From a virus (lineage: Duplodnaviria > Caudoviricetes): a stretch of DNA of 62,768 nucleotides. The stretch is from positions 1 through 62,768 of IMG/VR virus record IMGVR_UViG_3300020123_000165; one strand, 5' to 3'. Position numbers and translations under genes: made by a program. The notes beneath the pieces were generated by a model. That model saw only the letters and a program-made list of their open reading frames with translations. It ran no database searches and was not told the DNA's origin. This document shows positions 128-62,768 of this stretch, piece after piece (the stretch's first letter is position 1; every line of letters begins with the position of its first letter).

Positions 128-683
128 TCCTGATAAAGAACCTTTACAGATTTACGAAGAACTTCCTCAAGAACTTCGACAGAAGCTTTATAATCGTCAT
201 GGCCCCGAAAGTGAGCTAGGATTCTCTGAACGTATCTGGACAGATCCTGATATGCGAAAATATGTGGCCGAGAATTATCCTCTTACGCATAATCTTGAAC
301 AGATTCAGCAGATCAAAGGCTCAGGTAAGAAAGACTCGATGCAGCGCATTCTACCTGAGGACATTCCCAAGTATCAACCATACCTCAAAGACTTTCTCAA
401 TAGTCAGCCCTGGGGAACCGTAAAGGACATGAAGAACACTGGGTTGATAGATTCTCATGTACGCTACACTCCGGCAAAGGAGCAAGGCCTTCCTCGCTTC
501 ATGACGGAAGAAGAACTGAAGCCATACCAGGATGTTTTTGGTAAGTCCGATATGGAAAAAGCTATTGATGATCCCAATTTTGGTCAAGGTTGGGAGCCGG
601 ATGAGCAAATTGAGTTTGCTAATGGTGGTTTGGTCCGAGAGCCGGACTATTTTCAGGATCTTGACGCGTTCCTTGCTCGGTAG
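1..683 (+). CDS. C-terminal part of a 682-aa PcfJ-like-domain protein that starts at 61276 and spans the origin
   Basis: In frame across the junction; motif EGDVMGHCVGDY..G...IYSLRD..G..HVTIE is typical of PcfJ-like domains; ends with FANGGLV tag. Confidence 0.8.
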   Translation, partial: VMGHCVGDYCDDVASGQTGIYSLRDKSGKSHVTIETSKSKRVPDKEPLQIYEELPQELRQKLYNRHGPESELGFSERIWTDPDMRKYVAENYPLTHNLEQIQQIKGSGKKDSMQRILPEDIPKYQPYLKDFLNSQPWGTVKDMKNTGLIDSHVRYTPAKEQGLPRFMTEEELKPYQDVFGKSDMEKAIDDPNFGQGWEPDEQIEFANGGLVREPDYFQDLDAFLAR

Positions 684-718: not shown

Positions 719-856
719 ATGCCTCTAGCTAAGTCCGCCTCTAAAAAGGCCGTCTCCAAGAACATCAAGACCGAGATAGCCGCGGGGAAGCCTCAGAAAC
801 AGGCTGTCGCTATTGCTCTATCAGTTCAACGGAAAGCCAAATCACGTGGAAAATGA
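719..856 (+). CDS. Small basic phage protein (45 aa, MPLAKSASKKAVSKNIKTEIAAGKPQKQAVAIALS)
   Basis: Read manually (below track cutoff); GGAG RBS; KPQKQAVAIALS motif common before portal genes. Confidence 0.8.
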   Translation: MPLAKSASKKAVSKNIKTEIAAGKPQKQAVAIALSVQRKAKSRGK

Positions 857-3539
857 CCTCAACCCCTTAACTTTGGGTGAGACTCCTGAAGATTTGATCG
901 AGAACCCCGATGGTTCGGTGGATGTGCCTCTCGAAGACTCTTCCGAGCCCCATTCTGGCGAGTTTATGGAGAATCTGGCGGAGGAATTGCCAGAAAGTGA
1001 GCTTATCGACATCGCCACTGAGCTTTGTGAGCTCATTGAGAAGGACAAGAAGAGCCGTGAAAAACGTGATAAGCAGTATCAGGAAGGCCTTCGTCGCACT
1101 GGTTTGGGTGACGATGCTCCAGGCGGAGCTGAGTTTGAGGGCGCTTCTAAGGTGGTACATCCAGTGTTGGCCGAAGCCTGTGTGGATTTTGCTAGTCGCG
1201 CAATCAAAGAACTGTTCCCGGCCTCTGGTCCTGTAAAGCCTTGGGTCATTGGGACCATTTCACCAGAGAAGCTTGAGCGGGCCAATCGTAAGACTCGGTA
1301 CATGAACTGGCAGCTCACGACCCAGATCAAAGAGTATCGTGATGAGCTGGAACAGATCCTGACTCAGGTCCCGATGGGTGGTAGCCAGTACCAAAAGTTC
1401 TGGTATGATGAGCGCTTTCATCGAGCTAAGGTCGAATTTGTCCCAATCGACGATGTCTTTCTGCCGTTCTCTGCCACCAATTTCTACACGGCTCAGCGAG
1501 TAACTCATCGCCAGTCGATCACGAAGTATGAGTATCAAGAACGAGTCAAATCAGGGCTCTATCGTGACATCTTCATACCGTCGAAGAACTCGGCTCCTGA
1601 GCAATCTCGGTCAGCGAAAGCTAATGACAAGATCGAAGGTCGTGAAGAAGACGGTTACAATGAGGATGGCCTTCGCGCTATCCTGGAGATCTATACCTGG
1701 CGTGGACTCGAAGGCGATGAACTGACCGCTGGGGAGTACGCCCCTTACATCATCACCATCGATGAAGACACCGAAGAAGTCTTGGCTATCTATCGAAACT
1801 GGAAAGAGAACGATCCCACTTTCGAGAAGCTGGACTGGTTCGTCGAATGGAAGTTCATCCCCTGGCGAGGCGCATATGCGATTGGTCTTCCTCATCTTAT
1901 TGGCGGCCTTAGTGCTGCTCTTACAGGTTCTCTGCGGGCCTTACTCGACTCTGCCCATATAAACAATGCCGCGACTATGCTCAAACTCAAGAGCGGTCGC
2001 ATCATTGGACAGAACACTCAGGTCAACGTAACACAGGTACAGGATATTGAAGGTCCTGCGGGTATTGACGACATTCGCAAGCTCGCGATGCCGATGCCGT
2101 TCAATCCCCCGAGCCCCGTCCTATTCCAGCTCATGCAAGAGCTGTATGGCCTGGCTAAGGGCGTAGTTGCTACGGCTGAGGAGAAGATTGGCCAGGTGGG
2201 CGATCGTACTCCAGTCGGAACGACGATGGCATTGATTGAGCAAGGATCAAACACCTACTCAGCCATCCACGCTCGTCTACATGAGTCTCAGAAGAAGGCT
2301 CTGGCCATTCTGCACCGCATCAATCAGGATTACCTGGATGAGCAGAATTCTACCTTTGATCTGGGTGAACAGACAGTATCTCGAGAAGACTTCCAGGGAA
2401 CAATGGACGTCATCCCAGTCTCTGATCCCACGATCTTCTCTGAGGCTCAACGATTCGCTCAAGCTCAAGCCGTCCTTCAGATGGCTCAGCAAGATGCGGG
2501 GAATCCGAAGGTTCCATGGAATCAAATTGCGGTACGTCGCCGGATCCTGAAGCAGATGCGAATCGAGGGGGTAGATGAACTTCTACCTGCTGAGAAAGAA
2601 CCTATCACCTCGGACTCCCTGACCGAGAACACAATGCTTCTTCAGGGCCATCCACTGGAAGCCGCTCCAGAGCAAGACCATTATATGCATATCCAGTCGC
2701 ATATGATGTTTTTGTCCAGCCCGATTCAACTGAAGAATCCGCTGGTTCAACCTCAGGTATTGATGCAGCTGCTAGGGCATATTGGAGAGCATATTCAGAT
2801 GTACCAGACTCGCTTGGTCATGAGTATCGCTGAGCAAGGCGGCATGCAAGATCAGGCCATTCTTCAGGGTATGGTGAAAGCTCAACAGGTTCTCACTACC
2901 CAGCTTGGTGAGCTTCTTACCCAGATTCCCCAAATTCAACAAGAGCTCCAGAAGCGTATTCCTCAGGCTCCAATGCCTCCTGAAGTTCAGGCCTCCCTCC
3001 AGATTGCTCAGATGGATACGCAACGTAAGGCTCAGTTCGATCAGGCCACTATCCAGTCTAAGCAAGCTGAACAACAAGCGGCTCAGCAGTTGGAGAATGC
3101 TAAGGTTCAGATGAAGCAGGCTGAGATGCAGTTCAATCAACAGGTTGAACAGATGAATCAGCAATTTGAGCAGCAGATGCGTCAGCTTGAGCTGAAGATC
3201 GAGAATGACTCTCATCAGGCACGCCAGCAAGTTGAGCTCATGAAGAATGAACAGGACAATCATCAGAAACAGATGACTGACCTGATCAAGAATCGAGATG
3301 ATAATGAGACTAAGGTTCTCATCGCACAGATGAGTAAGCAACTGGAGGCTATGACCCAAGTTAAGCCTCCGGAGAGCCCTATTGCTTCTCAAGTAGACCT
3401 CACTCCGCAGATCGAACAGCTTAATGGCCTTCTGGATCAACTGGGCAAGCAGCAAACTAGTGACGCCTTAGCTGAGACCATGAACAGTCTGAAAGCTATG
3501 GTCGAAGGTTTGAGTCAACCAACCACTAAGGTATACTGA
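846..3539 (+). CDS. Portal protein with long Q-rich coiled-coil C-terminus
   Basis: Position near terL; VHPVLAEACVDF, MNWQL, PVGTTMALIEQG..YSAIHARLH motifs; GTG 846 preferred over the track's TTG 813. Confidence 0.9.
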   Translation: MENDLNPLTLGETPEDLIENPDGSVDVPLEDSSEPHSGEFMENLAEELPESELIDIATELCELIEKDKKSREKRDKQYQEGLRRTGLGDDAPGGAEFEGASKVVHPVLAEACVDFASRAIKELFPASGPVKPWVIGTISPEKLERANRKTRYMNWQLTTQIKEYRDELEQILTQVPMGGSQYQKFWYDERFHRAKVEFVPIDDVFLPFSATNFYTAQRVTHRQSITKYEYQERVKSGLYRDIFIPSKNSAPEQSRSAKANDKIEGREEDGYNEDGLRAILEIYTWRGLEGDELTAGEYAPYIITIDEDTEEVLAIYRNWKENDPTFEKLDWFVEWKFIPWRGAYAIGLPHLIGGLSAALTGSLRALLDSAHINNAATMLKLKSGRIIGQNTQVNVTQVQDIEGPAGIDDIRKLAMPMPFNPPSPVLFQLMQELYGLAKGVVATAEEKIGQVGDRTPVGTTMALIEQGSNTYSAIHARLHESQKKALAILHRINQDYLDEQNSTFDLGEQTVSREDFQGTMDVIPVSDPTIFSEAQRFAQAQAVLQMAQQDAGNPKVPWNQIAVRRRILKQMRIEGVDELLPAEKEPITSDSLTENTMLLQGHPLEAAPEQDHYMHIQSHMMFLSSPIQLKNPLVQPQVLMQLLGHIGEHIQMYQTRLVMSIAEQGGMQDQAILQGMVKAQQVLTTQLGELLTQIPQIQQELQKRIPQAPMPPEVQASLQIAQMDTQRKAQFDQATIQSKQAEQQAAQQLENAKVQMKQAEMQFNQQVEQMNQQFEQQMRQLELKIENDSHQARQQVELMKNEQDNHQKQMTDLIKNRDDNETKVLIAQMSKQLEAMTQVKPPESPIASQVDLTPQIEQLNGLLDQLGKQQTSDALAETMNSLKAMVEGLSQPTTKVY

Positions 3540-4045
3540 TGACAGACTTCAATTCAGCCTTTGATAAGATGATTGTCAATGAAGGCGGGTATAAACTCAC
3601 TGAGGTGAAGGGTGATCGGGGCGGGCAGACCTATGCCGGGATCGCTCGGAAAGCTTGGCCGCGTTGGGATGGTTGGACAGCTATCGATGATGGCCAAACA
3701 CCTTCTACTCAGTCGGTCCGCGACTTCTACAAAGTCAACTTTTGGGACAAGGTTCAGGGAGATTTCCTGGAGCATCAGCGAGTAGCGGTAAGCCTGTTTG
3801 ACTTCGCCGTCAACGCAGGTGTTAAGACGGCCATCAAGTTGGCTCAGATCATCGCTGGCACAGCTCCGGACGGAGTGCTCGGGGATAAGACTCTCGGTGC
3901 TCTCAACACCATTCCCGAGGATGATTTCGTCGCTCGCTATGCCCTGGCCAAGGTCGCTCGTTACGCACAGATTGTTACACATGACCGCTCACAAGGCAAG
4001 TTTCTCCTGGGCTGGATTAACCGTACACTTCGGGAGGTCGTATGA
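3539..4045 (+). CDS. Endolysin, glycoside hydrolase family 108 with C-terminal peptidoglycan-binding domain
   Basis: EGGY..DRGGQTYAGI motif; FDFAVNAG; FLLGWINR. Confidence 0.92.
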   Translation: MTDFNSAFDKMIVNEGGYKLTEVKGDRGGQTYAGIARKAWPRWDGWTAIDDGQTPSTQSVRDFYKVNFWDKVQGDFLEHQRVAVSLFDFAVNAGVKTAIKLAQIIAGTAPDGVLGDKTLGALNTIPEDDFVARYALAKVARYAQIVTHDRSQGKFLLGWINRTLREVV

Positions 4046-4455: not shown

Positions 4456-4471
4456 CTAAAGGACACTAGCA

Positions 4472-4914: not shown

Positions 4915-5073
4915 ATGGGAAAGTTGGCTCAGCAACTCAGCGGGCAAAGCCAAGTCAAGGCTTATAAGAACGGCGGTAAGGTCAATGATGATGCTAAGGC
5001 AGATAAGAAGCTCATCAAAGAAGAACTCAAGAAGAGTGGCTGTATGAAGCGCGGTGGAAAGGTGAAGAAATAA
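4915..5073 (+). CDS. Small Lys-rich protein (52 aa) with two GG tags (YKNGGKV, MKRGGKV)
   Basis: Read manually; AAGGAG RBS; stop overlaps next ATG. Confidence 0.8.
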   Translation: MGKLAQQLSGQSQVKAYKNGGKVNDDAKADKKLIKEELKKSGCMKRGGKVKK

Positions 5074-16542: not shown

Positions 16543-17801
16543 GTTACCTTCCACTGGACCAAATGGCTTACCGAGATGGACCTGGTCTAGATGCTTTCGG
16601 TCGCTTGAGAATAGCGGACAGTATTCAACTGCTCGGGGCAGCACAGGAATATACCTTCCATCCACTGACTTGGGATCACTTCACTTCTGGTGCAGGTACG
16701 GCCACCTACAGCGCCAATACCTCCAGCACCGTTCTTCGCACTGGGGCTTCTACCAGCGGAGCACGCGCTCTAAGACAAACCAAGATTTATTACCGCTACA
16801 ATCCTGGGAAATCACACCTGATCAAGTTGACGGGAACCATACGGAAGTCAGGAACACCGGCAGGAGCTTCCTTTACTTCACTGGGATACTACGACGACGA
16901 CAATGGTTTGTTCTTTCGCAGCAAAGTGACTGGGGTATATGTCACCAGCCGAACCAACACGTCGGGAGCTCCAGTAGAAACTGAAGTAGTTCAGTCCAGT
17001 TGGAATCTGGATAAGCTGGACGGCACCGGTTCTTCTGGGGTGACCGTTGATTGGACCAAAGAACAAATCTTTATCTTTGACCTCCAATGGTTGGGCGTAG
17101 GAAGAGCACGGTTTGGTTTGTTCATTGGTGGATCCATCATCTATGTTCATGAGATGTTGCATTCCAACTTGTTCACCGCCGCCTACATGCGAACCGCGAA
17201 TCTTCCAGTTCGGTATGAGGCTTTCAACTCCGGTGGTGCTGGAGCAGACGTTTCGCTGGAAGCCATCTGCGCCTCAGTAGAATCTGAGGCTGGTGTTCAG
17301 GAAGATAACTTCTACCCTTTCTCCTATTCAGCTTATCTTACAGCCATGGCGCTGGACACCACTCTGCGTCCAGTGGTGACTCGTCGACTGCGCGATACCT
17401 TCAATGGCCTCACTGTTCGCGGACACGCCACTCTGTCGGATTTTCAGTTGCGAGTAGGTACGAATGATATCTACTGGGAAATTCGGTATAACCAGACGGT
17501 GACTCTTGGTGGCGGCGGTTCAACCACCACCAATAATGTTGATGCCACTTACTCTATCAGCGAGTACGATACCTATGCAGGAGCGGCGAATACCGTCAGT
17601 GGTGGAATACTTATTGCTAGCGGGTTTGTCTCTACTGGGGCTGGATCAGTTAGAGGAGTTGATCAGATCAGTGCGGCAGATTCCTTGTTGATACTTGGTC
17701 GCACATACGCTAATGTCAGAGACTCCTTTACTTTGTCGGCTCGTTCAATGACAGGTGCAGCGACACTATCCCTAGCTTCAAACATCAAGGAGCAATATTG
17801 A
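16539..17801 (+). CDS. Virion protein with probable lectin-like beta-sandwich
   Basis: DAFGRLR, YNPGKS, W.LDKLDGTG.SG, QWLGVG motifs. Confidence 0.6.
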   Translation: MSYLPLDQMAYRDGPGLDAFGRLRIADSIQLLGAAQEYTFHPLTWDHFTSGAGTATYSANTSSTVLRTGASTSGARALRQTKIYYRYNPGKSHLIKLTGTIRKSGTPAGASFTSLGYYDDDNGLFFRSKVTGVYVTSRTNTSGAPVETEVVQSSWNLDKLDGTGSSGVTVDWTKEQIFIFDLQWLGVGRARFGLFIGGSIIYVHEMLHSNLFTAAYMRTANLPVRYEAFNSGGAGADVSLEAICASVESEAGVQEDNFYPFSYSAYLTAMALDTTLRPVVTRRLRDTFNGLTVRGHATLSDFQLRVGTNDIYWEIRYNQTVTLGGGGSTTTNNVDATYSISEYDTYAGAANTVSGGILIASGFVSTGAGSVRGVDQISAADSLLILGRTYANVRDSFTLSARSMTGAATLSLASNIKEQY

Positions 17802-19537
17802 TGGCGGAAATCAAGAAACTCTATCAAGTCACCTCCCTGTCTGGCATTAAGCGCGATGGAACTGTGCTGGATGGTGACAATTTCTCCGATGGTCAGTGGA
17901 CTCGGTTCAATCGAGGTCGGCCTAAGAAAATAGGTGGCTATCAGGAGAATAATACCTCTATTCCCGGGCCTATTCGTGGCTTAATCGTATGGTCCAGGGG
18001 CCTATTCAATGCCCTTATCTGTGCTAGTCAGTCAGCTATTACTCAGTCTAATGTTGATCAGAATGGAGGATCAGGCACCTCTTATGACCGTACGCCCGTG
18101 GGGATGACCTCACTGGATGGTTGTTGGACCCTGGATACCATGTATGATGACGCGGTGGGTAGCAAGAATACTATCGTAATAGCTCATCGTAATAATGCCC
18201 TATCTCAGATAGATGAGGCTACAGCATACCCTGTCTACTTTGGAGTAGCTGATGATACCGCTCCCCTTACTGCTATTGCTGGCCTTAGCGTTTCTGGTGG
18301 TATTGTCTGCATTGCCCCTTATCTGGTATATTATGGCTCGGATGGCCTCGTGGGATGGTCTGATGTCAACCAACCACAAACCCTTAACAGTGGAGACGCC
18401 GGAACCGATAGAGTCACAGGAACCAAAGTAGTTAAAGGCCTGCCCCTTCGATCTGGTACTGGACCAGCGGCTATTCTGTGGTCACTAGACTCGGTTATCA
18501 GGATGGATTATATCGGGGGATCCACCATCTTCAGATTCTCTACACTGAGCGCTCAGTCTTCTATCCTGTCACAGAATGGGGTCATCGAGTATGATGGTGA
18601 CTACTTCTGGGCCGGAATCGACCGCTTCCTGGTCTACTCCGGAGGGAAGGTTCAAGAGCTCCCCAACCAGATGAACAAGAACTGGTTCTTTGACAATCTG
18701 AACTATTCTCAGCGCCAGAAGGTGTGGGTCACCAAGATTCCACGTTTTGGTGAGATTATTTGGCATTTCCCCTTTGGGGACTCCACTGAGTGCAACAAAG
18801 CGGTGGTTTATAACGTACTAGAAAGAGTCTGGTATGATTTCGAGGTTTCTCGGACGGCCGGTTACTATTCCCAGGTTTTCAAGTATCCCGTGTGGGCCGG
18901 TGATTCTTCTCTATTCAAGACCTACGTAAAGCTATCGGGAGTGACTGGGAGCTATGTTGTGGGAGACAGTGTATTGGGATCCTCTACTAATGTTCCCGGG
19001 ATTGTGGATTCGGTCATTAGCTCTACCGAACTGACCATCCGGGCTCAGAACCCTGCCAGAGTTCCACTTATCTCCGTTGGCGAGAACCTGGTCAACAATA
19101 CCCGTTCTGGGTCTGGGGGAGTCACTCGAGTCGACGAGATCCACTCTGCTTATATTCATGAGAAGGGCTTGAATGCTGTTACTTCCGCTGGGGAGCAGGC
19201 TATCCTGGCCCACTTTACTACCTCGGACTTCGGGTTTCCCACCGGGGGAGCTCAGCAAAATAACATTGAAGGGCTGAATCGCTGGACACGTTTGATCCGT
19301 ATCGAGCCTGACTTCATACAGTCGGGGGATATGGAAGTTCAGGTAGTCCAGAGTGAGTTTGCTCAGAACCCAGATACGACAAGCGAGGTATTTACGTTTG
19401 GGCCAGACACGGGTAAAATTGATATGCGGAAACAAGGTAGACAAATTCGTCTCAAGTTTACTAGCAACACATTAAATGGGAACTTTGAAATGGGTCGAGT
19501 CATCCTGCATACTGAACCCGGCGATGTAAGGAGCTAA
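17801..19537 (+). CDS. Tail nozzle/tubular B-like (beta-propeller) protein
   Basis: GIKRDGT, RF.RGRPKKIGG, FGEIIWHFP, R..GRQIRLK; podovirus position. Confidence 0.75.
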   Translation: MAEIKKLYQVTSLSGIKRDGTVLDGDNFSDGQWTRFNRGRPKKIGGYQENNTSIPGPIRGLIVWSRGLFNALICASQSAITQSNVDQNGGSGTSYDRTPVGMTSLDGCWTLDTMYDDAVGSKNTIVIAHRNNALSQIDEATAYPVYFGVADDTAPLTAIAGLSVSGGIVCIAPYLVYYGSDGLVGWSDVNQPQTLNSGDAGTDRVTGTKVVKGLPLRSGTGPAAILWSLDSVIRMDYIGGSTIFRFSTLSAQSSILSQNGVIEYDGDYFWAGIDRFLVYSGGKVQELPNQMNKNWFFDNLNYSQRQKVWVTKIPRFGEIIWHFPFGDSTECNKAVVYNVLERVWYDFEVSRTAGYYSQVFKYPVWAGDSSLFKTYVKLSGVTGSYVVGDSVLGSSTNVPGIVDSVISSTELTIRAQNPARVPLISVGENLVNNTRSGSGGVTRVDEIHSAYIHEKGLNAVTSAGEQAILAHFTTSDFGFPTGGAQQNNIEGLNRWTRLIRIEPDFIQSGDMEVQVVQSEFAQNPDTTSEVFTFGPDTGKIDMRKQGRQIRLKFTSNTLNGNFEMGRVILHTEPGDVRS

Positions 19538-19543: not shown

Positions 19544-21622
19544 ATGGCACTAACCTCCTACGCTGACTATCTCGCCCAGAACACTACGGACAATCCCAAC
19601 TACCCTAGTTCGTGGAATGTGTTACCGTGGATGGCCCACGATGATGACACTGGCACTCCTGCTCCGCAGGCCACGATCACGAACAAAGGTTTGCTGGACT
19701 ATCTTGACTATGCTATGCCGGGTCAAGTACCCCAGGATGTAGCGGACAGCTACAAGCGTCAGTTGGACGCTACCGGACAGCCGGGTGGCTTCGGTGACAG
19801 CATGGGTTTCCTTACCGGGGCGTGGAGCACCAATCCGATCACCGGGAACATGAATTTGACGCCGCAGGAATATCTTCGCGGAAGAACTGATCTACCTCAG
19901 GAAGTGCTAGACGCGCTTTATAATCCGAGCGATGCACGATTGCACAGTTCCGATCCGACGGTTCAGCGTCTCAATTCCATGTACAAGTATCAACCTGAAT
20001 CCTACGGGTATTTGAATCAAGATACTGGTGGAGAGTTCCCGATCATTAGCAAAGGAAAAGGGGGTCTTGGGTCTTGGGACTTGGGCGACGGCAAAACGCT
20101 TGTTCCTGTTAGAGAAGAGCAGTATGAAATTGCTCCGGGCCAAAGTCAAGCAGATGGTTCTATTGGCTTTCTACAAGGTTTCAATTCACTAGCCCCGACC
20201 GCCTACAATCCAGATGGTTCCTTCAACCCATCCGGGTGGCGTGTTGCTGACTTACGCAGTGAATCGCGCCGTCAAGCCCAAGGGCATCTGAAAGGTGTGG
20301 CAAGCGTTCTGGGCGCAGCTCTGGGAAGCTATCTTATGGGTCCGGCGGGTGGCGCTGCTGCGGATATTCCAGCTGGTTCTGAGGGTGTGATGACTGCTGC
20401 CCCCGGAACTACCGCCACGGCAGGAACCGCAACAACTTCTCCCGGTGTGTTCGGTCAGTCTTCTCTGGATACGGGTAGCCAAGTTGGAAACAAAGCTATC
20501 GAGAGTGGTATCAAATCCTATGTAATGAGTGGGGGTGATCCGAACAAAGCCTTGTTAGGGGCTTTGAGTGCTCCTCTGGCCAGTACTGTGAGCTCTTCTA
20601 TAGGGGATTCTGCGGGTGACTTTTCCTCTGGCCTGGGAAAGCTAGCCACTAACCAAATCATGAGCCTGTTGGCGGGAAAGGGGTTGAACCTGAATCCCAT
20701 GCAACTGGCTTCATTAGCACCAGGGGCTCTGAAGAGTGTCTCCGACTGGTCGCCTAACACCTCTTCCATGGATACGAACATGCCTGACGACTTTGACGCT
20801 TCCTCATATACCCCCGAATGGTCCTCTATCTCCGGAGACTCTGGCCTTAATAGCTACCTTGGATACGACAGTAATGGTAACTACGTCGGTAATGGAATAA
20901 ACACTGACTATAGCAATTTTGGCCTCGGCGACACCTCTCCCGGCATCAGCGGAGACTCCTCACTCGATGACTACCTAAGGTCTATCCTGAGCGGAGTCAA
21001 TACCAATGAGGGTACTTTCCAAGGTGCTCCGGCGGCTGATACTTCTTGGGATCAGGCAGCTCAACTGGCGGCCTTGAATAATCAGGCGGCTAAGCTTCCA
21101 ACGAGCGGATCTTCTGGCCCAAGGGCTGGCTCCGGCTCCGGCTCAGGTTCTGGAGTCAATTCGGCCCTCTCTGGACTCAGCCTGGCCCTTGCCCTGGCTC
21201 AGGCTCTTAGAAAGAACCCTACGGCTCCAGTCTCTTCTCGGGGCAATCAGGGCCAAACTTTTGCTCCCGCCTACCGAGGAGCCACCGCCCCCCGGACCAA
21301 GTATGCTTCCGGTGGCGATGTGCAAGCTCCCGGTGGTCTGTCGGCCATCACCGCTGCACTAGCTCAACATGCTCAGCGTCGGGGATTGCTTCATGGTAAT
21401 GCTGGGGGCCAGGATGATGTTCTTGATATCAAGGCTGCGCCAGGTGAGTATGTGATGGATGCCGAAACGGTATCTCATCTGGGAGATGGCAGCACGGATG
21501 AGGGAGCTCGTAAGTTGGATCAGATGCGGGAAGCTATTCGAGCCCATAAGCGTATGGGTCCTCTATCTCAAATCGCCCCTAAGGCAAAAGATCCTATGCA
21601 CTATCTGAGGAAGGGGAAGTAA
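19544..21622 (+). CDS. Probable internal virion/ejection protein
   Basis: G/S-rich; YASGGDV tag followed by GGQDD...GEYVMDAE.VS.LGDGS..GA.KLD domain. Confidence 0.65.
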   Translation: MALTSYADYLAQNTTDNPNYPSSWNVLPWMAHDDDTGTPAPQATITNKGLLDYLDYAMPGQVPQDVADSYKRQLDATGQPGGFGDSMGFLTGAWSTNPITGNMNLTPQEYLRGRTDLPQEVLDALYNPSDARLHSSDPTVQRLNSMYKYQPESYGYLNQDTGGEFPIISKGKGGLGSWDLGDGKTLVPVREEQYEIAPGQSQADGSIGFLQGFNSLAPTAYNPDGSFNPSGWRVADLRSESRRQAQGHLKGVASVLGAALGSYLMGPAGGAAADIPAGSEGVMTAAPGTTATAGTATTSPGVFGQSSLDTGSQVGNKAIESGIKSYVMSGGDPNKALLGALSAPLASTVSSSIGDSAGDFSSGLGKLATNQIMSLLAGKGLNLNPMQLASLAPGALKSVSDWSPNTSSMDTNMPDDFDASSYTPEWSSISGDSGLNSYLGYDSNGNYVGNGINTDYSNFGLGDTSPGISGDSSLDDYLRSILSGVNTNEGTFQGAPAADTSWDQAAQLAALNNQAAKLPTSGSSGPRAGSGSGSGSGVNSALSGLSLALALAQALRKNPTAPVSSRGNQGQTFAPAYRGATAPRTKYASGGDVQAPGGLSAITAALAQHAQRRGLLHGNAGGQDDVLDIKAAPGEYVMDAETVSHLGDGSTDEGARKLDQMREAIRAHKRMGPLSQIAPKAKDPMHYLRKGK

Positions 21623-21623: not shown

Positions 21624-22514
21624 ATGGCCACGATGCCCGTTACCCAAAACACGGAGTACATGTACCCCCAAGCCGTCAACCAAATGACGGATACCGCGGC
21701 CAACTATGCTTCCGGTATCCCCGGACTGGCTACTCAAGCCTATCAAAACTGGTATGATCAGCCCCTGTCCACTGGTCAGACGCCCATGCAGACTCAGGCA
21801 TGGGATACGGCAATGTCGAACCCTTCGCAGCAGTGGCTTAGCCCGCTGCAGCAGGCTTCTTCGATGTACCAACAGGGTGGGACTTACGATCCAAACCAGC
21901 TTCAGCAATTCCTGGACCCCTACACCAATGATGCGGCCAATGCTACAATGGCCCAAGTCAATCGGAACCTGACAGAGAACATCCTGCCCCAAGTCAATAG
22001 CACCTTTGCTGGCAATGGTCAGTTTGGCTCTAGCCGGAATGGTGATTTTGAGAATCGTGCTATCCGGGATACCCAAACGGGGCTGGCCGAGACCCTGGCT
22101 AAGCAGAATGTGGCTAACTACAACCTGGCTAATCAGGATTACCTGAACTGGGCTAGGCAGCAGCAACAGAGTGCGCAAGGGCTGCAGGGGGTGGCTGGCA
22201 CCGGCTCGAACATCACTCAGACGGGTCTGACCAACCAACTAATGGCGGCTCAAGCTCAGCAACAACAAGAGCAGTCTACCCTGGACAAGAATTACCAAGA
22301 TTATCTGACTCGTCAGCAGTTCCCTCTTTCCGCACTTCAAGCTATTGGATCTGCCACTAGCAACATTGGTCGGACCGAGAATCCAAATGTCAATACCCCA
22401 ACGGTTCAGCCTGATGCGGTGTCTCGAGCTTTGGCATCCCTTCAATTACTGCAGTCGGGATTGAATAGCACGGATATTCAGTCTCTGATGTCCTCCATGG
22501 GCCTTTCCTTCTAA
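21624..22514 (+). CDS. Probable ejection protein
   Basis: Q/N/A-rich helical; F.DPY, G.FGSSR motifs. Confidence 0.65.
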   Translation: MATMPVTQNTEYMYPQAVNQMTDTAANYASGIPGLATQAYQNWYDQPLSTGQTPMQTQAWDTAMSNPSQQWLSPLQQASSMYQQGGTYDPNQLQQFLDPYTNDAANATMAQVNRNLTENILPQVNSTFAGNGQFGSSRNGDFENRAIRDTQTGLAETLAKQNVANYNLANQDYLNWARQQQQSAQGLQGVAGTGSNITQTGLTNQLMAAQAQQQQEQSTLDKNYQDYLTRQQFPLSALQAIGSATSNIGRTENPNVNTPTVQPDAVSRALASLQLLQSGLNSTDIQSLMSSMGLSF

Positions 22515-41241: not shown

Positions 41242-41425
41242 GTTTATTCCTTTCTTCTAACATGGTTTGAGCAATACCGTAACATTGACCAGCCGCGTAT
41301 CGGCCAGAGGCTAAGGCTGACTGAGCGAAGTGATCCAACAGGACCTCTTTGAGAAGCTTATTCTGTCGCTCCAGGTAGTTGATCCGGGACTCATAAGTGG
41401 CTTGGTCATCCTTCGTTATCATCAT
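41228..41425 (-). CDS. Hypothetical phage protein
   Basis: DHFAQSAL...Y.IA..ML.ER pattern. Confidence 0.6.
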   Translation of the reverse strand: MMITKDDQATYESRINYLERQNKLLKEVLLDHFAQSALASGRYAAGQCYGIAQTMLEERNKHVGS

Positions 41426-42149
41426 CCTCTCCAATTCCTTCATCATTAAAGCTGGCCCCATTGGCCGTACAGTAATCTGCCAGGGCCTTACAGTCCAATT
41501 TCTCCTGGGCTATACCCCACATTTTAACCCTATGCTTATATGCGTACCGGCATTCCTTCTCATAGAATTTAGCTGTGGCATTCAAGAAGGTTCGGTAGTA
41601 TCGTGGATCATGCTTCTTCAGAAGCTCATAGAACTCCACAGCGTCGGTATGCTGAAACAGGATAGGAGCGAAGAGGGCCGTGAGAAAGCAATTTGCAAAG
41701 TAGAGTCGGTAGGTTCGTGGAGTGTGAGCAAGGCCCAGCTGACCAAGGATAATTGGAAGCAGCGCATAGTCAGCGGTGTGTTTTTGGATGAGCTCAGTAG
41801 ATCGGTATATGACATCCACTTCGGTCCATTTTGGCGTTTGTGTAATGATGATGGACCGTATACAATGACCTTGAGATCGTGCATCCTTCTTTTCTCCCAG
41901 TGTATTGAGGGCCACAGAGGTATGTGGCGATTTGCGGCGGGCCGCTAGTTTTGTCCGGGCGGCGTCCACTTCAGCCTGATTGAAATAGTTCCGCATCAGC
42001 TGGGCCACTTTACCCCCGCGATACCCCAACTGAGCCAGGTCCACCTCAGGTAGGGTGTTCATTTCCCAGGATACGCCTTGAACGACTTTGCGTACCCCCG
42101 TATAGATACCAGGTTGTTGAATGACATGCTTACAAAGATCAACTAACAT
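41406..42149 (-). CDS. Divergent second thymidylate-synthase-fold protein
   Basis: QGHCIRS (PC equivalent) and YRSTELIQKHTAD (RSxD..D equivalent); near TS gene. Confidence 0.6.
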   Translation of the reverse strand: MLVDLCKHVIQQPGIYTGVRKVVQGVSWEMNTLPEVDLAQLGYRGGKVAQLMRNYFNQAEVDAARTKLAARRKSPHTSVALNTLGEKKDARSQGHCIRSIIITQTPKWTEVDVIYRSTELIQKHTADYALLPIILGQLGLAHTPRTYRLYFANCFLTALFAPILFQHTDAVEFYELLKKHDPRYYRTFLNATAKFYEKECRYAYKHRVKMWGIAQEKLDCKALADYCTANGASFNDEGIGEDDDNEG

Positions 42150-48559: not shown

Positions 48560-50566
48560 TTAGAACTTGATGTTAATGATACGAGAGAAGCTGCCCTTGA
48601 CCCGGCAGACAAGTGAGTTGCGTTGCGTACTGCTAAAACCGAGGCCACTCAGTTGATCCCGGGATTCTTCTGTACGCATACGGGAGCCCACCATCTCCAT
48701 GACCTTACGATGCGATTCCAGTGACGTATTGAGGAACTCATTATAGAATCCCCGAGCCGTACCGTCATTCTGACAACCATCGATCATGAAGAAATAATGG
48801 CGATTGCCTACTCCCTGACCATCCCAGTGGTTTGGTGATAGCATGATAGCATTAACCCGCTGGAAGGTTCGGGTCTGGATACCCCACACTTCTTGGGTCT
48901 TAACCTCTTGGGATGAAGATAGTGACTTGATCATCTCAATACCTTTATCATGTGAGTACCTGAACTGGGCCACCAAGATCGTCTCTCCATCCCTGACCGC
49001 CTTTTCATAAGCAAAGCGATGAACGTCTCCCAAGAAATCCATTTCTACTTCAAACCCCACATTTGTAGACTCACGTTTTCGGTAGTTATGTACTATCAGT
49101 TGGTAGACACCTTCTTTCATTGCCCGCTTATTGCCGTAGAAGATATTCTCTACTGGTTCCCGAGTAGATCCTACTCCAGCATTCATGTCAACGTCCAGGC
49201 GACCACCACTGGGAGAGGTATTGTTACGATTTCCAAAATAAATCTCGTAACCCCCCGGCTCTTGCATATGAAAGTCAAGGTCATCAAAATTGAACCAAGC
49301 TAACCGACAGCATAGATCACCTGAGACGTTCCCACCCGCTTTCTTTACCCGTTCTTTGATACTGTCAGTCACGTCACCATTGTATGACCAGCTGAATCCG
49401 TTGTCCCACTTGAATAGCCGCTGGGCAGTAGGGTCGACTGGAGCAATCAAACTGACCAGGTTGCCGGTGTGACTGTTGTCCATCATCACTTCAATACTGT
49501 CAGCCTTGGGAAGAATGTCAGTGATGAACTTGTCAATACTGACTTCTTCTATCCGATCTAAGCGAGGCACGCTGTCTTTGGTACTGGAAGCCAGGTCGTC
49601 GAACACACTACCTTCCATCCGCTTTCGAGCTGAACGGTCGGCGAACAGTACGTTGTTGACGGAGATGTCAGGCAGCTTGGCGTACCGCCGTTCAAGTGAT
49701 GAGGTCAATCCCAAGTCTTCCACCGTTTCCTTGGCCTTGTCAATCATCGCCTTGGTCACGAGTGCTGTCGGGCGCTTGTAGTTCTGGGGGGCCACCATCG
49801 CTTCGAACCGTTTAACAGCGTCTTCCAATTCCATGCCTTCGGACAGTTCGGTGAGCAATGTGCCAATACTGGTGTTGCGGATACGAGTGATAGCCTGAGA
49901 AATGCTGGCACTGACCTTGGTCCACACCCAGATATCGTCGGTGTATTGGGCCTTTAGTTTCTTGAACTCTGAGACCGCGAACCGGTTTTCTTCCCCTTTA
50001 TACAGGCTATTCTGATCGATGAGTTCAAGGACGGTGTCCAACGCCTCGAAAGTGATCTCATTAAGACCACGCTTGAATACGTCGAAGGTGGATCGCTTTT
50101 CGCCGAGATATGCACCGGGATCTTTCTTGACATACTCTGCAGGGATGTTGATGAAGAAGTGGTTCCAGGTCTTGACACCGTTGATAGTGTCTTCGAAGTT
50201 CTTGTCCGTGCCGGCAGTACGTTCTTCATGCGTGAACACGTTGTCAATCGGGAAGGACTTAACGAAAAAAGCCATCTTATCAGCAACATCCTGATACTCA
50301 GGCTCACCACTGATAGTCGTGTCCCAGAGACTGACTACCTTGCCGTCAATGATAGCGACCACATTGCCGACCGCACGAATGAACTGTTTGCAGCACGAGC
50401 AGTCATGCTCAGTGCGTTCACGATACAGCGGATTGGATCCCTCAGGAAAGCTGTTGAGATAGGTATCCCACAGACCTTCCTTTGGAGCCTGTGTGCGGTA
50501 CAGCGGGTGTTGTTGCATAGTGGCGAATTGCCGAGCAACCGCCTCTTTAAAAGCTACGAAATTCAT
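48560..50566 (-). CDS. Large conserved phage protein (668 aa) with HDCxxC and YfaP/DUF2135-like region
   Basis: HDCSCCKQFIR; DDLDFH..P....IYF; GRLDVD.N...PVENI. Confidence 0.7.
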   Translation of the reverse strand: MNFVAFKEAVARQFATMQQHPLYRTQAPKEGLWDTYLNSFPEGSNPLYRERTEHDCSCCKQFIRAVGNVVAIIDGKVVSLWDTTISGEPEYQDVADKMAFFVKSFPIDNVFTHEERTAGTDKNFEDTINGVKTWNHFFINIPAEYVKKDPGAYLGEKRSTFDVFKRGLNEITFEALDTVLELIDQNSLYKGEENRFAVSEFKKLKAQYTDDIWVWTKVSASISQAITRIRNTSIGTLLTELSEGMELEDAVKRFEAMVAPQNYKRPTALVTKAMIDKAKETVEDLGLTSSLERRYAKLPDISVNNVLFADRSARKRMEGSVFDDLASSTKDSVPRLDRIEEVSIDKFITDILPKADSIEVMMDNSHTGNLVSLIAPVDPTAQRLFKWDNGFSWSYNGDVTDSIKERVKKAGGNVSGDLCCRLAWFNFDDLDFHMQEPGGYEIYFGNRNNTSPSGGRLDVDMNAGVGSTREPVENIFYGNKRAMKEGVYQLIVHNYRKRESTNVGFEVEMDFLGDVHRFAYEKAVRDGETILVAQFRYSHDKGIEMIKSLSSSQEVKTQEVWGIQTRTFQRVNAIMLSPNHWDGQGVGNRHYFFMIDGCQNDGTARGFYNEFLNTSLESHRKVMEMVGSRMRTEESRDQLSGLGFSSTQRNSLVCRVKGSFSRIINIKF

Positions 50567-59983: not shown

Positions 59984-60607
59984 GTGCCGCCAATCGTCAG
60001 CCCTCTTCAAAAGGTGTTTCAAGCTATTCAGCGGTTGGCCAAAGGCACCGACCTCGCAGAGCCGGCAATAGAAAGAGCCCGATCTCTACCTGAGTACATT
60101 GACCCCTCCCGTTACAGTCCTCCGGCTCTCGCGAGAGCAACTCTGCAAATGCCAGCAGCTCAGAAAGGCTTTGCAGAGAGTCTAGTCTCCCAGAGACCGC
60201 CATTCGCATCCACTCTGGTCCGTCCAAGTGAGTGGGCTGAACATACACCACCGCTCGACTCAGTGCATGATGCGAACATTATTGAATACCTCAGAAACTC
60301 CTTAAGCAAGGACAAACTCAAAGAGCTCCCCGTCCTCTGGGCCGATCAGTACCCCCATGGGCTAGATCTAGGCTACGAAGGTCGCCACCGCATGGAAGCC
60401 TTGCGCCAGCTGTACGGTGACGATCCGGTGCTCACTAACCTGATCAAGGGCGATCGCTTTGATATAGTCAATAGCCCATACTACAAAGATCCAGTGAGAG
60501 AGTATCGTGGTGATATCAATATGAGTCCACTTGAGCTTCTCAGGCAACAGATGCAGTTCGGCGACAAACCATTCAAGGTAGACCCTCTCTGGATGAGCGA
60601 CAAGTAA
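59984..60607 (+). CDS. ParB/Srx-like domain protein
   Basis: P.L.......GYEGRHRMEAL resembles the ParB DGHHR box. Confidence 0.65.
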   Translation: MPPIVSPLQKVFQAIQRLAKGTDLAEPAIERARSLPEYIDPSRYSPPALARATLQMPAAQKGFAESLVSQRPPFASTLVRPSEWAEHTPPLDSVHDANIIEYLRNSLSKDKLKELPVLWADQYPHGLDLGYEGRHRMEALRQLYGDDPVLTNLIKGDRFDIVNSPYYKDPVREYRGDINMSPLELLRQQMQFGDKPFKVDPLWMSDK

Positions 60608-61071
60608 TGCCAAGCCCACTTGAACTCTTGAAGCGGGTCATAATGACCTCCAAAGATATGCCTGACTTCTTAGAGGCATTCAATCACATCCGTCGCCGTA
60701 CCCCGGACATCAACAGTACGAATGAATGGAACAAGGTCACGCTTCCTGATGAGATGGCAAACAACATGCAGCATCCTGACGTTCGCACTCATGTATTTTT
60801 TGACCCCTCAGGTCGAGCTCAGGGCGCATATCAACTAGACTCCCGGCAACAGATCCCGTACCTTCTATCTGATATGCCAGGCCTAGGTGCGCATCTTCTG
60901 GATGACGCTTATTTTGTTGCGCCTCAAAAGCCTCTAAGCTTGCATGCCATCCCCGGCAGTGAAGGATTCTACCGTAAGCAACCTGGCTGGGTAGAGTCGC
61001 AAGACGAAGGCATTTCCAAATTCATTCGTAAGGCCCAAGGCGGCCTCTGTCAATGTAGGGGTATGAAATGA
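60607..61071 (+). CDS. GNAT-like acetyltransferase
   Basis: PGLGAHLL (motif A) and L.AIPGSEGFYRK..GW (motif B); C-terminal KAQGGL. Confidence 0.65.
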   Translation: MPSPLELLKRVIMTSKDMPDFLEAFNHIRRRTPDINSTNEWNKVTLPDEMANNMQHPDVRTHVFFDPSGRAQGAYQLDSRQQIPYLLSDMPGLGAHLLDDAYFVAPQKPLSLHAIPGSEGFYRKQPGWVESQDEGISKFIRKAQGGLCQCRGMK

Positions 61072-61275: not shown

Positions 61276-62768
61276 ATGGGACGTGCTACCGGTAGGAACA
61301 ACCGTGACCTTGGGCCTCTCGATTTATTGAGGGGTTTATATGAGACACTGGGTGGAGCAGCTAAAGGCGTAACCTCGGCGACCTTAGGCCTGCCAGGCGA
61401 TCTTGAGGGCCTCGCCCGAATGCTCATCCCTCGCATCTCTAATGAGTCTTCTCTGCCAAATACTGAAGATCTCATGAGACGCCTCCCAGGCCCAAACAAC
61501 ACAATGTCTGAGCTGGGCCGCAACCTGCCTTTGACGCCCACTCAAGCGGCTAAGCTTGGAGCCCCCCTCACTCGAGCCGCGGCTCAAGGTATTCATGAGG
61601 CGATGCAAGGTCGCGGTCCGCTTCAGGCGGCATTCTCAGCCATTCAACCAAAGTACGTGATCAAAGAACGTGGGGGTAATTGGTTGCCTGAAGGCTTGCC
61701 GATGCCGCAGAACCCTAAAGAGGCCCTTCAGCCTTACATTCCGGGGGGTGGCAGAAGCCGAGAAGAACTGCTTAAGGTATATGGGGAGAATCCTAACAAA
61801 GAAGCTATTCGTGGGGTAGATAATGCCAAAGTCATAGATCATTGGGTCAATGGACCCCTCCGCAAGTATATCATGCGGGATATGGCTACAGTGGACGACC
61901 CCATACGAAAACTAGCCGATCAGGGGATCCTCCACGTCGACCCCCAAGAGCTCAATTACAATATGCATAACTATGGTCGCTGGCCCCTTGAAGGACAAAC
62001 TTTCCACGCTAAGTCTGACATGGCAAAAGCTTGGGAAGGTGCATCAGACAATGCCGTTGGAATGTCCCCGCGATGGTCACTAGCTCCGGAACCGGGCTCT
62101 AGCAAGATCTCTCGCGAGCACCCCTGGATAGATAAGTTGCCGGAAGATACGAATCTGTATGGTATCTCAGACTCGAAGAACTTTGCCAATGACCTCGGAC
62201 TTGATCGGCTTATCGAATCCACCTATGATGATCTTCTGACTGGTCGCTTGACTCCTGAGCAACTTAAATCAGGATCCTTTAGTGTAGATGCCGCCGTACG
62301 TCAAGCTCACAACCGTCGCATGGAAGAAGTGGCTAAGCAAGAAGCTGAGCAGCTCAAGAATAGTCGCAATGCCGCAACGGTAACCCACAAAGAGTACCCT
62401 GATAGCCCCGAAGGCTTCCACTGGGTGCAGATCAAGCCTACAGGAAAAAAGGGGCTCCCCGAGGGATATACGGTAGAACCAGACTCTACCTATATGGGTA
62501 AGACTGGGTATCAGTTACGTATGCCAGATGGAACACGCTTAGGGCTTCCTCAGGAATCTGAAGAGTTGGCTTTTGCAGAGTTGAAAGACCCTCGTTATCA
62601 AGTAGATGGTGACCTTCAGAAAGCTCTCACTCATGAAGGTGACGTCATGGGTCACTGCGTCGGCGACTATTGCGACGATGTAGCTTCTGGCCAGACAGGT
62701 ATCTACTCTCTGCGAGACAAGAGCGGAAAGTCTCACGTAACGATTGAGACTAGCAAAAGTAAGAGAGT
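61276..62768 (+). CDS. N-terminal part of the 682-aa PcfJ-like protein (continues into 1-683)
   Basis: Read manually: ATG 61276 stays open to the window end, in frame with the ORF at 6. Confidence 0.85.
   Translation, partial: MGRATGRNNRDLGPLDLLRGLYETLGGAAKGVTSATLGLPGDLEGLARMLIPRISNESSLPNTEDLMRRLPGPNNTMSELGRNLPLTPTQAAKLGAPLTRAAAQGIHEAMQGRGPLQAAFSAIQPKYVIKERGGNWLPEGLPMPQNPKEALQPYIPGGGRSREELLKVYGENPNKEAIRGVDNAKVIDHWVNGPLRKYIMRDMATVDDPIRKLADQGILHVDPQELNYNMHNYGRWPLEGQTFHAKSDMAKAWEGASDNAVGMSPRWSLAPEPGSSKISREHPWIDKLPEDTNLYGISDSKNFANDLGLDRLIESTYDDLLTGRLTPEQLKSGSFSVDAAVRQAHNRRMEEVAKQEAEQLKNSRNAATVTHKEYPDSPEGFHWVQIKPTGKKGLPEGYTVEPDSTYMGKTGYQLRMPDGTRLGLPQESEELAFAELKDPRYQVDGDLQKALTHEGDVMGHCVGDYCDDVASGQTGIYSLRDKSGKSHVTIETSKSKR
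62642..62768. repeat. 127-bp terminal direct repeat (copy 2)
   Basis: Identical to 1-127. Confidence 0.95.

Follow-up and report, generated by a model that had tools for sequence, protein, structure and literature searches.

Introduction

Several systems are described in which a short sequence element or a domain decides which proteins enter a protein shell. Encapsulin cargo-loading peptides are short peptides of Gly and hydrophobic residues, with a Gly/Ser/Leu/Ile consensus, located in flexible terminal tails. They are shared by non-homologous cargo enzymes encoded near the gene of an HK97-fold shell protein, bind the luminal face of that shell, are sometimes repeated and are not cleaved. 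In phage T4, a short N-terminal capsid targeting sequence brings the unrelated internal proteins IPI−III and Alt into the prohead for later injection, binds the scaffold core and is removed by the prohead protease. Packaging of T4 Alt is mentioned by Iyer et al. (PMC5512222), who describe polyvalent proteins and effector domains that are encoded beside the portal gene, fused to the MuF/SPP1 gp7 head-targeting domain and predicted to be packaged and injected. Adenovirus and ASFV proteases cut virion-internal proteins and small basic core-peptide precursors at Gly-Gly sites, and P22 gp7 loses 20 N-terminal residues to the host protease OpdA according to its GenBank note. How podophages select the proteins that enter the head together with the DNA is largely unknown outside T4.

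Here we analyzed a stretch of 62,768 nucleotides (the window) from the Caudoviricetes record IMGVR_UViG_3300020123_000165. An original prediction made from the sequence alone had pointed to five similar di-glycine heptamers in four non-homologous late proteins, all at termini or domain boundaries, and proposed that they address cargo enzymes to the prohead for co-injection or mark a cleavage site, with the T4, adenovirus and ASFV systems as precedents. We find a seven-residue motif that recurs in the flexible ends of unrelated virion-module proteins of this phage and of many uncultured relatives, and that may serve as a shared docking label for proteins carried in the capsid.

Results

Translation reproduced all five heptamers exactly, in four unrelated ORFs of the late strand, so that the observation itself is confirmed (Table 1). 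As their Gly codons differ (GGT GGT, GGC GGT, GGT GGA, GGT GGC and GGC GGC, in the order of the table), the likeness exists at the protein and not at the DNA level. The ends of the window overlap by exactly 127 nt and the record is a virus record with direct terminal repeats, whereby the PcfJ-like ORF runs across the junction of the circular assembly and encodes 682 aa. The label GNAT given to the 154-aa protein holds by predicted fold, as its model matches GNAT acetyltransferases in the PDB.

Table 1. Features of the window that carry, flank or resemble the di-glycine tag.
Positions	Strand	Feature	Basis
128..683	+	3' part of the PcfJ-like ORF	Bases 1−127 repeat the last 127 bases of the window; PcfJ PF14284 21.4 bits here, below the cut-off
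615..635	+	Tag FANGGLV	Residues 661−667 of the 682-aa PcfJ-like protein, 15 residues from its C-terminus
4915..5073	+	52-aa Lys-rich peptide gene carrying two tags	Family of 9 sequences including that of the window; in locus L014 the homologue directly follows the portal gene
4963..4983	+	Tag YKNGGKV	Residues 17−23 of the 52-aa peptide
5044..5064	+	Tag MKRGGKV	Residues 44−50 of the 52-aa peptide
17798..19537		ORF of a folded structural protein with look-alike VYSGGKV	Heptamer in a conserved folded stretch; GG kept in 6 of 40 homologues
19544..21622	+	First ejection protein (E1), 692 aa	No Pfam or PHROG family; directly upstream of the phrog_4287 gene; synteny holds in phage RW, MW202545 and DSL-LC04
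21302..21322	+	Tag YASGGDV	Residues 587−593 of E1, 47 residues upstream of GEYV
21389..21619	+	Conserved C-terminal GGQDD...GEYV... domain of E1	Residues 616−692; tblastn match to Caulobacter phages and MW202545; ends in a degenerate tag-like Y-L-R-K-G-K, at the place where RW ends in YMDGGRV
21624..22514		DNA ejection protein	phrog_4287
41406..42149	−	Early gene with look-alike GYRGGKV	
48560..50566	−	Early gene with look-alike KKAGGNV	
60607..61071	+	154-aa GNAT-fold protein (predicted) with a low-confidence C-terminal tail	No Pfam hit; mean pLDDT 89.2, residues 146−154 below 50; best PDB matches GNAT acetyltransferases (E 1.3e-6 onward, prob 1.00, TMq 0.43−0.60)
61030..61050	+	Variant tag KAQGGLC	Residues 142−148 of the GNAT-fold protein
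61276..62768	+	5' part of the PcfJ-like ORF	PF14284 32.3 bits, cut-off 25; phrog_3169/8470

To assess chance, we compared the counts with those in 2000 shuffles. The originally proposed pattern, [FYMK][AK]xGGx[VC], gave 6 hits, the five heptamers plus KKAGGNV, against a shuffle mean of 0.18, with 0 of 2000 shuffles reaching 6. The pattern [FYM][AK].GG.[VI] gave 4 hits against 0.16 expected, with 0 of 2000 shuffles reaching 4. Both patterns were fitted after seeing the data, and a stricter test conditioned on the 96 GG sites of the window (F/Y/M at −3 against V/I at +3) gave counts of 4/10/11/71 with p=0.15, so that the evidence from the window alone is moderate and suggestive. The originally proposed pattern was too loose at its first position; KKAGGNV in an early gene and VYSGGKV in a folded structural protein are chance matches.

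Other genomes decide the matter. The distant phage DSL-LC04 carries 7 tags against 0.27 expected (0 of 2000 shuffles; Fisher p=0.0024 in the conditioned test), at different positions and in other proteins. In 80 IMG/VR loci around E1 we counted 53 hits on the late strand against 4.25 expected, but 1 against 0.46 on the other strand, while P22, used as a control, had 0 hits in 13,329 aa. The restriction to late genes was seen with 4 against 0 tags in the window and 7 against 0 in DSL-LC04. Among 205 unique cores collected with [FYMW]..GG.[VI], the unconstrained position −2 is A in 60 % and K in 18 % (1.62 bits), and the flanks are rich in G, S, P and A.

The motif is conserved while its flanks diverge. 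In E1, [FYM]A.GG.[VI] is present in 72 of 120 homologues and [FYM][AK].GG.[VI] in 60 of 118 further cluster representatives, at a median of 48 aa upstream of GEYV. All 16 PcfJ homologues compared carry xxxGGx[VI] within their last ~45 residues, 15 of 16 with F/Y/M/W at −3. In the 52-aa family the first tag is kept in 9 of 9 members, with G20 and G21 invariant, Y/F at −3 in 9 of 9, and V at +3 in 8 and A in 1, whereas the second tag is present in full form in 4 of 9, degenerate in 3 and absent in 2; the members P0129 and P0130 have four tags. KAQGGLC lacks the aromatic residue at −3, but it is a position-conserved K/R variant, as GG is invariant in 14 of 14 rows of the GNAT alignment, L147 is kept in 13 of 14 and 9 of 13 homologues have V/I at +3; none has an aromatic at −3, while F139 is invariant.

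The tag is furthermore portable between protein families and protein ends. PcfJ of DSL-LC04 has three tags at its N-terminus (residues 16, 39 and 55) rather than one at the C-terminus, and PcfJ in loci L030/L032 has five, at both ends. The tail GGL[VI]QMKxCxCG that ends the GNAT family also ends two proteins of 222 aa (locus L008) and 250 aa (locus L024), which BLASTP does not relate to the GNAT protein. Other tagged proteins are LPD23/HExxH, DUF6973 and DUF6496 proteins as well as the second and third ejection proteins in other phages. Multiple copies are common, as a 180-aa Lys-rich protein of locus L038 has 5−6 tags and a 449-aa protein of MW202545 has 5 strict and about 9 loose tags. Of 50 tags, 25 lie in the last and 13 in the first fifth of their protein; all five tags of the window are C-terminal or internal.

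In an AF2 model of E1 residues 563−692, built with 51 sequences, the C-terminal domain is helical with pLDDT 71−88, whereas the tag region has pLDDT about 55−64, no secondary structure, and is not packed on that domain, which gives no support for binding in cis. The tail of the GNAT-fold model likewise falls to pLDDT 57 and then 42, so that tags lie in poorly predicted and probably disordered sequence. Foldseek of the E1 model against viral models matched only uncharacterized proteins of uncultured phages, and PDB sequence searches with the E1 C-terminus and the PcfJ tail gave no match. The family defined by the E1 C-terminal domain is very large: a profile that also covers less conserved upstream columns finds 11,519 clusters at 50 % identity with E≤0.001 and 1,886 at E≤1e-30. 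In a single co-folding run of the capsid protein, the 316-aa scaffold candidate and the conserved head-module protein gp7337 with the 52-aa peptide as partner, made without controls and without portal, second ejection protein or oligomers, ipSAE was 0.00 and 0.00, which counts neither for nor against binding.

In agreement with the original prediction, no prohead protease is recognizable. No peptidase family appeared in the 31 of 39 plus-strand (late) ORFs of our list scanned with Pfam, nor in the 2 early-strand ORFs scanned; the capsid protein matches only the capsid part of fused protease-capsid PHROGs, and gp7337 and the scaffold candidate have no invariant Ser or His. A scan of genome contigs found only 11 MAG contigs and no isolate prophage. 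The cultured Caulobacter phage RW has the same head module, but carries only variant tags, in E1 (gp066c; MARGGYA, YMDGGRV) and in gp064c (WLNGGEV), and none in its portal-proximal small proteins, so wide tagging is not obligatory for this head type. The cultured Caulobacter phages GB2A, RLK and KcrB likewise carry variant tags in E1. P22 has no strict tag, and its gp7, gp20 and gp16 show nothing beyond a loose INSGGFL.

We found no description of this motif in print. Searches with typical tag strings returned no paper, PcfJ-like proteins in phages led to one unrelated DGR survey, and titles on capsid targeting and ejection proteins showed nothing on such a motif; the word motif does not occur in PMC10386132, section 8 of PMC12002296 describes no such motif, searches for the phages Pag-Yong1, Pra-JY27 and MinM2 gave only irrelevant hits, and DSL-LC04 appears only in its description paper. 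We likewise found no virion proteomics for any tagged phage, supplementary files, which could hold such tables, left aside.

Discussion

We interpret the heptamers as copies of a short linear motif, [Y/F/M]-[A/K]-x-G-G-x-[V/I], embedded in flexible Gly/Ser/Pro/Ala-rich termini and linkers of proteins that this phage lineage would carry inside the capsid. These are the ejection proteins and a variable set of putative cargo proteins encoded around the portal gene, namely PcfJ-like, GNAT-fold and metallopeptidase-like proteins, DUF6496-type small proteins and Lys-rich peptides. In this view the tag is an uncleaved docking peptide, whose two hydrophobic anchors, six residues apart across a Gly-Gly turn, would bind one common, as yet unidentified partner in the assembling head or pre-ejectosome. 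Any protein acquiring the tag would then be co-packaged and later co-ejected, and extra copies would add avidity. We give this reading a probability of about 0.5. Against it stand the non-significant association in the window alone, the few variant tags of RW and the missing aromatic anchor in the GNAT-family variant. Our analysis demonstrates that the motif is real, conserved, portable, mostly terminal, located in regions predicted with low confidence and restricted to late genes, while it is an inference that the tagged proteins are virion-internal, that the tag loads and docks them rather than being cut, and that the partner is a head component. The assignment as capsid-borne rests on gene position and on the PHROG name of the gene neighboring E1. 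The interpretation put forward in the original prediction is therefore partly supported: a real motif shared by non-homologous virion-module proteins, its location at termini or domain boundaries, its confinement to late genes and its conservation in homologues all hold, and its movement between protein ends and families is what an address or docking label would do, but presence of tagged proteins in virions and a loading function remain inferred. Much of the recurrence across families could also reflect spread of one tail module by recombination and not independent selection, although this would still need a function.

Among the alternatives, a role during or after ejection is the least unlikely. 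The tag could be an exit or ordering signal for passage through portal and tail channel, a joint of the trans-envelope ejectosome, or a handle for a conserved envelope or cytoplasmic host factor. The most constant carrier is E1, where the tag is coupled to a conserved C-terminal domain, second and third ejection proteins also carry tags, all carriers share ejection as much as packaging, and the motif is kept across phages whose records name hosts as different as Caulobacter, Planktothrix and Gammaproteobacteria. However, Lys-rich proteins with 5−9 copies fit avidity to a lattice or oligomer better than a one-off exit signal, tags on small enzymes without an envelope role such as the GNAT-fold protein argue against an ejectosome joint, and none of our results indicates a host factor. 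Proteolytic processing by a phage or host protease, removing targeting propeptides or releasing small basic peptides, is unlikely. It is suggested by the Gly-Gly core, a classic protease motif, by the resemblance of the two-site 52-aa peptide to adenoviral core-peptide precursors, by the N-terminal tag cluster in DSL-LC04 PcfJ, which could be a propeptide, and by the trimming of P22 gp7 by a host protease. Besides the lack of a peptidase among the scanned ORFs, some tags lie 0−6 residues from the C-terminus (YMDGGRV in RW, and FAEGGLVepry and FARGGLIrggkvv), where cutting would remove almost nothing, and tandem tags 9 residues apart in Lys-rich peptides would be chopped into fragments.

Cohesive stickers of aromatic and Gly-Gly residues, which would bind one another or DNA-bound basic linkers and gather internal proteins into a condensate-like body without a dedicated receptor, are similarly improbable. 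Low-complexity, poorly predicted surroundings, high copy numbers in Lys-rich proteins, the lack of an identified receptor and the absence of cis docking in the AF2 model would fit, but there is no direct evidence, conservation of Ala/Lys at −2 and Val/Ile at +3 is more specific than in typical sticker motifs, and many carriers have a single tag. Mimicry of the GroES mobile loop to recruit host GroEL for refolding of ejected proteins was considered because the head module encodes a Cpn10/GroES homologue (PF00166, 34.8 bits) whose loop reads KTASGIVL in the window, KTKGGIVL in DSL-LC04 and KTKGGIIL in RW, superficially like A-x-G-G-x-V. We rejected it on residue preferences as very unlikely: in tags the residue after GG is most often K, A, L, E or S and the residue after V/I is polar, so that the hydrophobic triplet of the GroES loops is missing, and the aromatic at −3 and Ala at −2 have no counterpart there. 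A chance or compositional artefact around GG in Gly-rich proteins would be compatible with the post hoc pattern, the p=0.15 in the window and the look-alikes, but is contradicted by the enrichment in an independent genome, the conservation at aligned positions in four families, the information at position −2 and the strand restriction.

A further and more tentative possibility is that the tag represents a generic, transferable cargo-loading peptide for tailed-phage capsids, functionally like an encapsulin targeting peptide, of which seven residues would suffice to dock any protein to the inner head, be it capsid protein, scaffold or portal-proximal core. A large, almost wholly uncultured podophage lineage would use it to load ejection proteins, DNA-coating basic peptides and an exchangeable arsenal of effector enzymes for co-injection. 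A label shared by ejection proteins and interchangeable enzymes next to the portal gene would give a testable rule for protein selection into the head, would make it possible to predict the injected-protein repertoire of thousands of uncultured phages directly from sequence, and could serve as a simple handle for loading foreign proteins into phage capsids.

Compared to the described systems, the tag resembles encapsulin targeting peptides in being a short peptide of Gly and hydrophobic residues in flexible terminal sequence of non-homologous proteins encoded near the gene of an HK97-fold shell protein, sometimes repeated and, by inference, not cleaved. Its consensus differs from that of the encapsulins, the shell is here a DNA-filled tailed-phage capsid with portal, scaffold and ejection proteins, ejection proteins are tagged as well as enzymes, and binding to the capsid protein is only a hypothesis. 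With the T4 capsid targeting sequence it would share the delivery of unrelated proteins into the head for injection, but the tags are mostly C-terminal or internal, often multiple, and no prohead protease was recognizable among the ORFs scanned. The MuF and polyvalent proteins (PMC5512222) share the effector domains encoded beside the portal gene, and one tagged protein carries LPD23, by its Pfam name one of the domain class of that paper, plus an HExxH motif. There the addressing element is a folded domain fused in one long polypeptide, whereas here the effectors are separate ORFs, each with a 7-residue motif; no MuF family was among the Pfam hits of the late proteins scanned or of 10 tagged relatives, and word searches of that paper found neither PcfJ nor glycine. 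The Gly-Gly sites of adenovirus and ASFV share the Gly-Gly core with an upstream hydrophobic residue in virion-internal proteins and small basic peptides, but in the tag this residue stands one position further from GG than in the adenovirus consensus, no cognate protease gene was found in the ORFs scanned, and tags occur at extreme C-termini and in tight tandem.

Genome architecture

The window represents a complete phage genome. The record is an IMG/VR virus record with direct terminal repeats and 100% estimated completeness, and as its two ends are identical over exactly 127 nt, the true circular length is 62,641 bp. No phage in the GenBank collection resembles it at DNA level. The late arm is encoded on the plus strand and comprises a large terminase, a block of small and enzyme-like ORFs, a PcfJ-like protein that crosses the assembly junction, the portal, an inserted lysis cassette, the gene of a 52-aa peptide, a Cpn10/GroES homologue, a highly charged 316-aa scaffold candidate, two conserved proteins of unknown function, an HK97-type capsid protein, SU10-type adaptors, tail fibre and structural proteins, and four ejection-type proteins, the first of which is termed E1 in the following. 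As the PcfJ-like ORF crosses the junction, neither end fragment alone shows the whole protein.

Coordinates of features in the window and in related loci
Feature	Position	Description
Terminal repeats	1-127 and 62642-62768	Identical over exactly 127 nt
Large terminase	57822-59438	Terminase_6N
Variable slot between terminase and PcfJ	59984-61274	Matching slot in IMG/VR loci L008-L035
Residues directly after the GNAT tag	61051-61068	QCRGMK
PcfJ-like protein	61276..62768 and 128..683	682 aa
PcfJ C-terminal tail after the tag	636-680	15 residues (REPDYFQDLDAFLAR)
Small basic ORF	719-856	45 aa, overlaps the annotated TTG start of the portal ORF
Portal	813-3539	phrog_1216
Lysis cassette	3539-4786	GH108 plus PG_binding_3 endolysin, GTA-type 3-TM holin, possible spanin
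Cpn10/GroES homologue	5511-5918	PF00166, 34.8 bits
HK97-type capsid protein	8485-9396
HNH_3 endonuclease ORF	9515-9982	Immediately downstream of the major capsid gene
ORF with near-match VYSGGKV	17798-19537	Match in a conserved folded stretch
Four ejection-type proteins	19544-25912	Second one is phrog_4287
E1	19544-21622	No Pfam or PHROG family, no PDB relative
Protein closed by the GNAT-type tail, locus L008	8058-8726	Not related to the GNAT family by BLASTP
Protein closed by the GNAT-type tail, locus L024	6725-7477	Not related to the GNAT family by BLASTP
Multi-tag protein, locus L001 (MW202545)	1610-2959	449 aa, Lys-rich, low complexity

The lysis cassette separates the portal gene from the 52-aa peptide gene, whereas in the related IMG/VR locus L014 the peptide gene follows the portal gene directly. 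The Cpn10/GroES homologue sits between the portal and the scaffold candidate and is conserved at that place in phage DSL-LC04 and Caulobacter phage RW, while 12 IMG/VR loci hold a BLASTP homologue. The HNH_3 ORF is probably a homing endonuclease insertion.

Occurrence of the motif in the genome

The original prediction, which described five similar di-glycine heptamers in four non-homologous late proteins, was correct in its observation, as all five were found in place. They use different Gly codons, so that the likeness is selected at the protein level. The descriptions given for the host proteins hold as well, including that of the GNAT, which Pfam does not detect, but whose AF2 model with a pLDDT of 89.2 matches acetyltransferases in the PDB.

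The originally proposed pattern gives 6 hits in the window against 0.18 expected, and the tighter pattern [FYM][AK].GG.[VI], referred to as the strict tag, gives 4 against 0.16, with none of 2000 shuffles reaching either count. As these patterns were fitted to the data, we also examined the 96 GG sites of the window, among which the joint presence of F/Y/M at −3 and V/I at +3 is not significant (p=0.15). The sixth hit of the original pattern, KKAGGNV, lies in an early gene, and the near-match VYSGGKV lies in a stretch where GG survives in only 6 of 40 homologues. The window on its own could therefore not decide the matter.

Conservation in related phages

Other genomes decide it. The C-terminal 123 residues of E1 have 363 homologues among 729 candidates, and of 120 of these, 72 carry [FYM]A.GG.[VI] and 101 a relaxed form, corresponding to 82 hits against 0.94 in shuffles. 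The tag typically lies 40–55 residues upstream of an invariant 'GGGQDD..GEYV' signature. This signature belongs to a C-terminal domain, 'GGGQDD..GEYV..LGDGS..G..LD.MR..IR.HKR..PPKAK.P..YLK' (seen in the window and in E1 homologues P0001-P0266), that defines a very large phage protein family, of which some members are called 'tape measure protein' in GenBank records. A profile search of 1.84 billion cluster representatives found 11,519 clusters at E<=0.001 and 1,886 at E<=1e-30, although the loosest count may be inflated, as the profile included less conserved upstream columns. Of 118 new representatives, 60 have the strict tag and 90 the relaxed one, at a median of 48 residues upstream of GEYV.

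For the PcfJ-like protein, one copy of each distinct homologue was compared from 32 IMG/VR loci found through the portal, leaving identical copies out. All 16 have xxxGGx[VI] within the last ~45 residues, and 15 of 16 have an aromatic residue or Met at −3. The 15 residues following the tag are conserved as xPxYFxDLDxFLxR in 9 of the 16 homologues; this tail appears reminiscent of the conserved C-terminal peptide of FtsZ that binds FtsA/ZipA, although a PDB sequence search returned no match. The family of the 52-aa peptide has 9 sequences including that of the window, and all 9 keep the first tag, while the second is complete in 4, degenerate in 3 and absent in 2, and two members have four tags. 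The GNAT-fold protein has 13 homologues, in which GG is invariant, the following Leu nearly invariant and V/I follows in 9 of 13, whereas none has an aromatic residue at −3. KAQGGLC, the heptamer of the window's GNAT-fold protein, is thus a conserved variant and not a chance match.

Phage DSL-LC04, a lake metagenome assembly whose PcfJ is 33% identical and whose gene order is the same, provided an independent genome that was not used to define the pattern. It has 7 strict tags against 0.27 expected, none of 2000 shuffles reaches 7, and all 7 are in the structural part of the genome. Their places differ from those in the window: three are found at the N-terminus of PcfJ, one each in a 114-aa and an 83-aa basic protein after the portal gene, one, together with a variant ending in Ala, in a 75-aa protein, and one in the third ejection protein, while E1 carries two further variants ending in Ala.

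The tag is also portable between proteins. More distant PcfJ proteins carry up to five tags, at both ends. The variable 'cargo slot' between the terminase and PcfJ holds a conserved 207-aa protein with a GYEGRHR motif (ParB/Srx-like by eye, without a Pfam hit), followed, depending on the relative, by a GNAT fold, an LPD23 plus HExxH protein, a DUF6973 protein or others, each of these alternative proteins being tagged. The tail GGL[VI]QMKxCxCG closes both the GNAT family and two proteins, in loci L008 and L024, that BLASTP does not relate to it; its Cys-x-Cys element might bind metal or form disulfides inside the head. MW202545 encodes the most extreme multivalent carrier seen, a Lys-rich protein two genes downstream of the capsid gene with five strict and about nine loose tags, as well as a DUF6496-type protein that ends in a tag. 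Proteins of this type carry tags in DSL-LC04 (83 aa), MW202545 (171 aa) and locus L030 (464 aa; PF20106 hit), whereas the 45-aa basic ORF of the window, which looks similar by eye, has none. Locus L038 has a 180-aa protein with five to six tags in tandem. Planktothrix phage Pag-Yong1 has YAEGGAL in E1 and YADGGFL in its third ejection protein, while P22 has none of the strict form.

Anatomy of the motif

In 205 unique cores found with a pattern that leaves position −2 free, this position is Ala in 60% and Lys in 18% (1.62 bits). Position −1 is polar or charged, the residue between GG and V/I is variable, and the flanks are rich in Gly, Ser, Pro and Ala. Of 50 tags, 38 lie in the first or last fifth of their protein. 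AF2 gives the E1 tag region a pLDDT of about 55–64 with no secondary structure and the GNAT tail 57 falling to 42. In 80 loci around E1 there are 53 tags on the late strand against 4.25 expected, and 1 against 0.46 on the opposite strand.

Putative role of the tag

The pattern has two hydrophobic anchors across a Gly-Gly turn, lies in poorly predicted termini, varies in copy number, hops between families and protein ends and is restricted to the virion module, which are the features of a docking short linear motif. The carriers either are ejection proteins or are encoded around the portal gene, where phages are known to keep packaged effectors (PMC5512222). The most economical reading is therefore a shared label that brings them to one partner in the assembling head or pre-ejectosome, to which we assign a probability of roughly 0.5. 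While the motif and its distribution are established by our analysis, the residence of the carriers in the virion, the docking and the partner are inferred. The idea put forward in the original prediction, a tag that addresses cargo to the prohead or marks a cleavage site, is supported in part. A single co-folding run aimed at the partner gave no answer, AF2 does not pack the tag on the C-terminal domain of E1 itself, and our sequence searches of the PDB and structural search of viral models found no solved or annotated relative. The cultured Caulobacter phages share the head module but carry only variant tags, in E1 and gp064c, making them a workable but lean model.

Among the alternatives, a role after ejection, which sequence alone does not separate from loading, appears unlikely but ranks next to docking. 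Cleavage is less likely, since no protease is recognisable among the late ORFs scanned, some tags end the protein, and tandem tags 9 residues apart would be shredded. Self-association and mimicry of the GroES loop are minor options of low likelihood, and chance is excluded for practical purposes.

Our literature searches, which did not extend to supplementary files, found no paper describing the motif. The tag is a member of none of the systems it was compared with, as its consensus, its position and the lack of a recognisable protease differ and no MuF domain was found in the proteins scanned. Its closest working analogies are the encapsulin cargo-loading peptides and the T4 capsid targeting sequence, and its closest biological context is the MuF/polyvalent-protein theme of packaged effectors.
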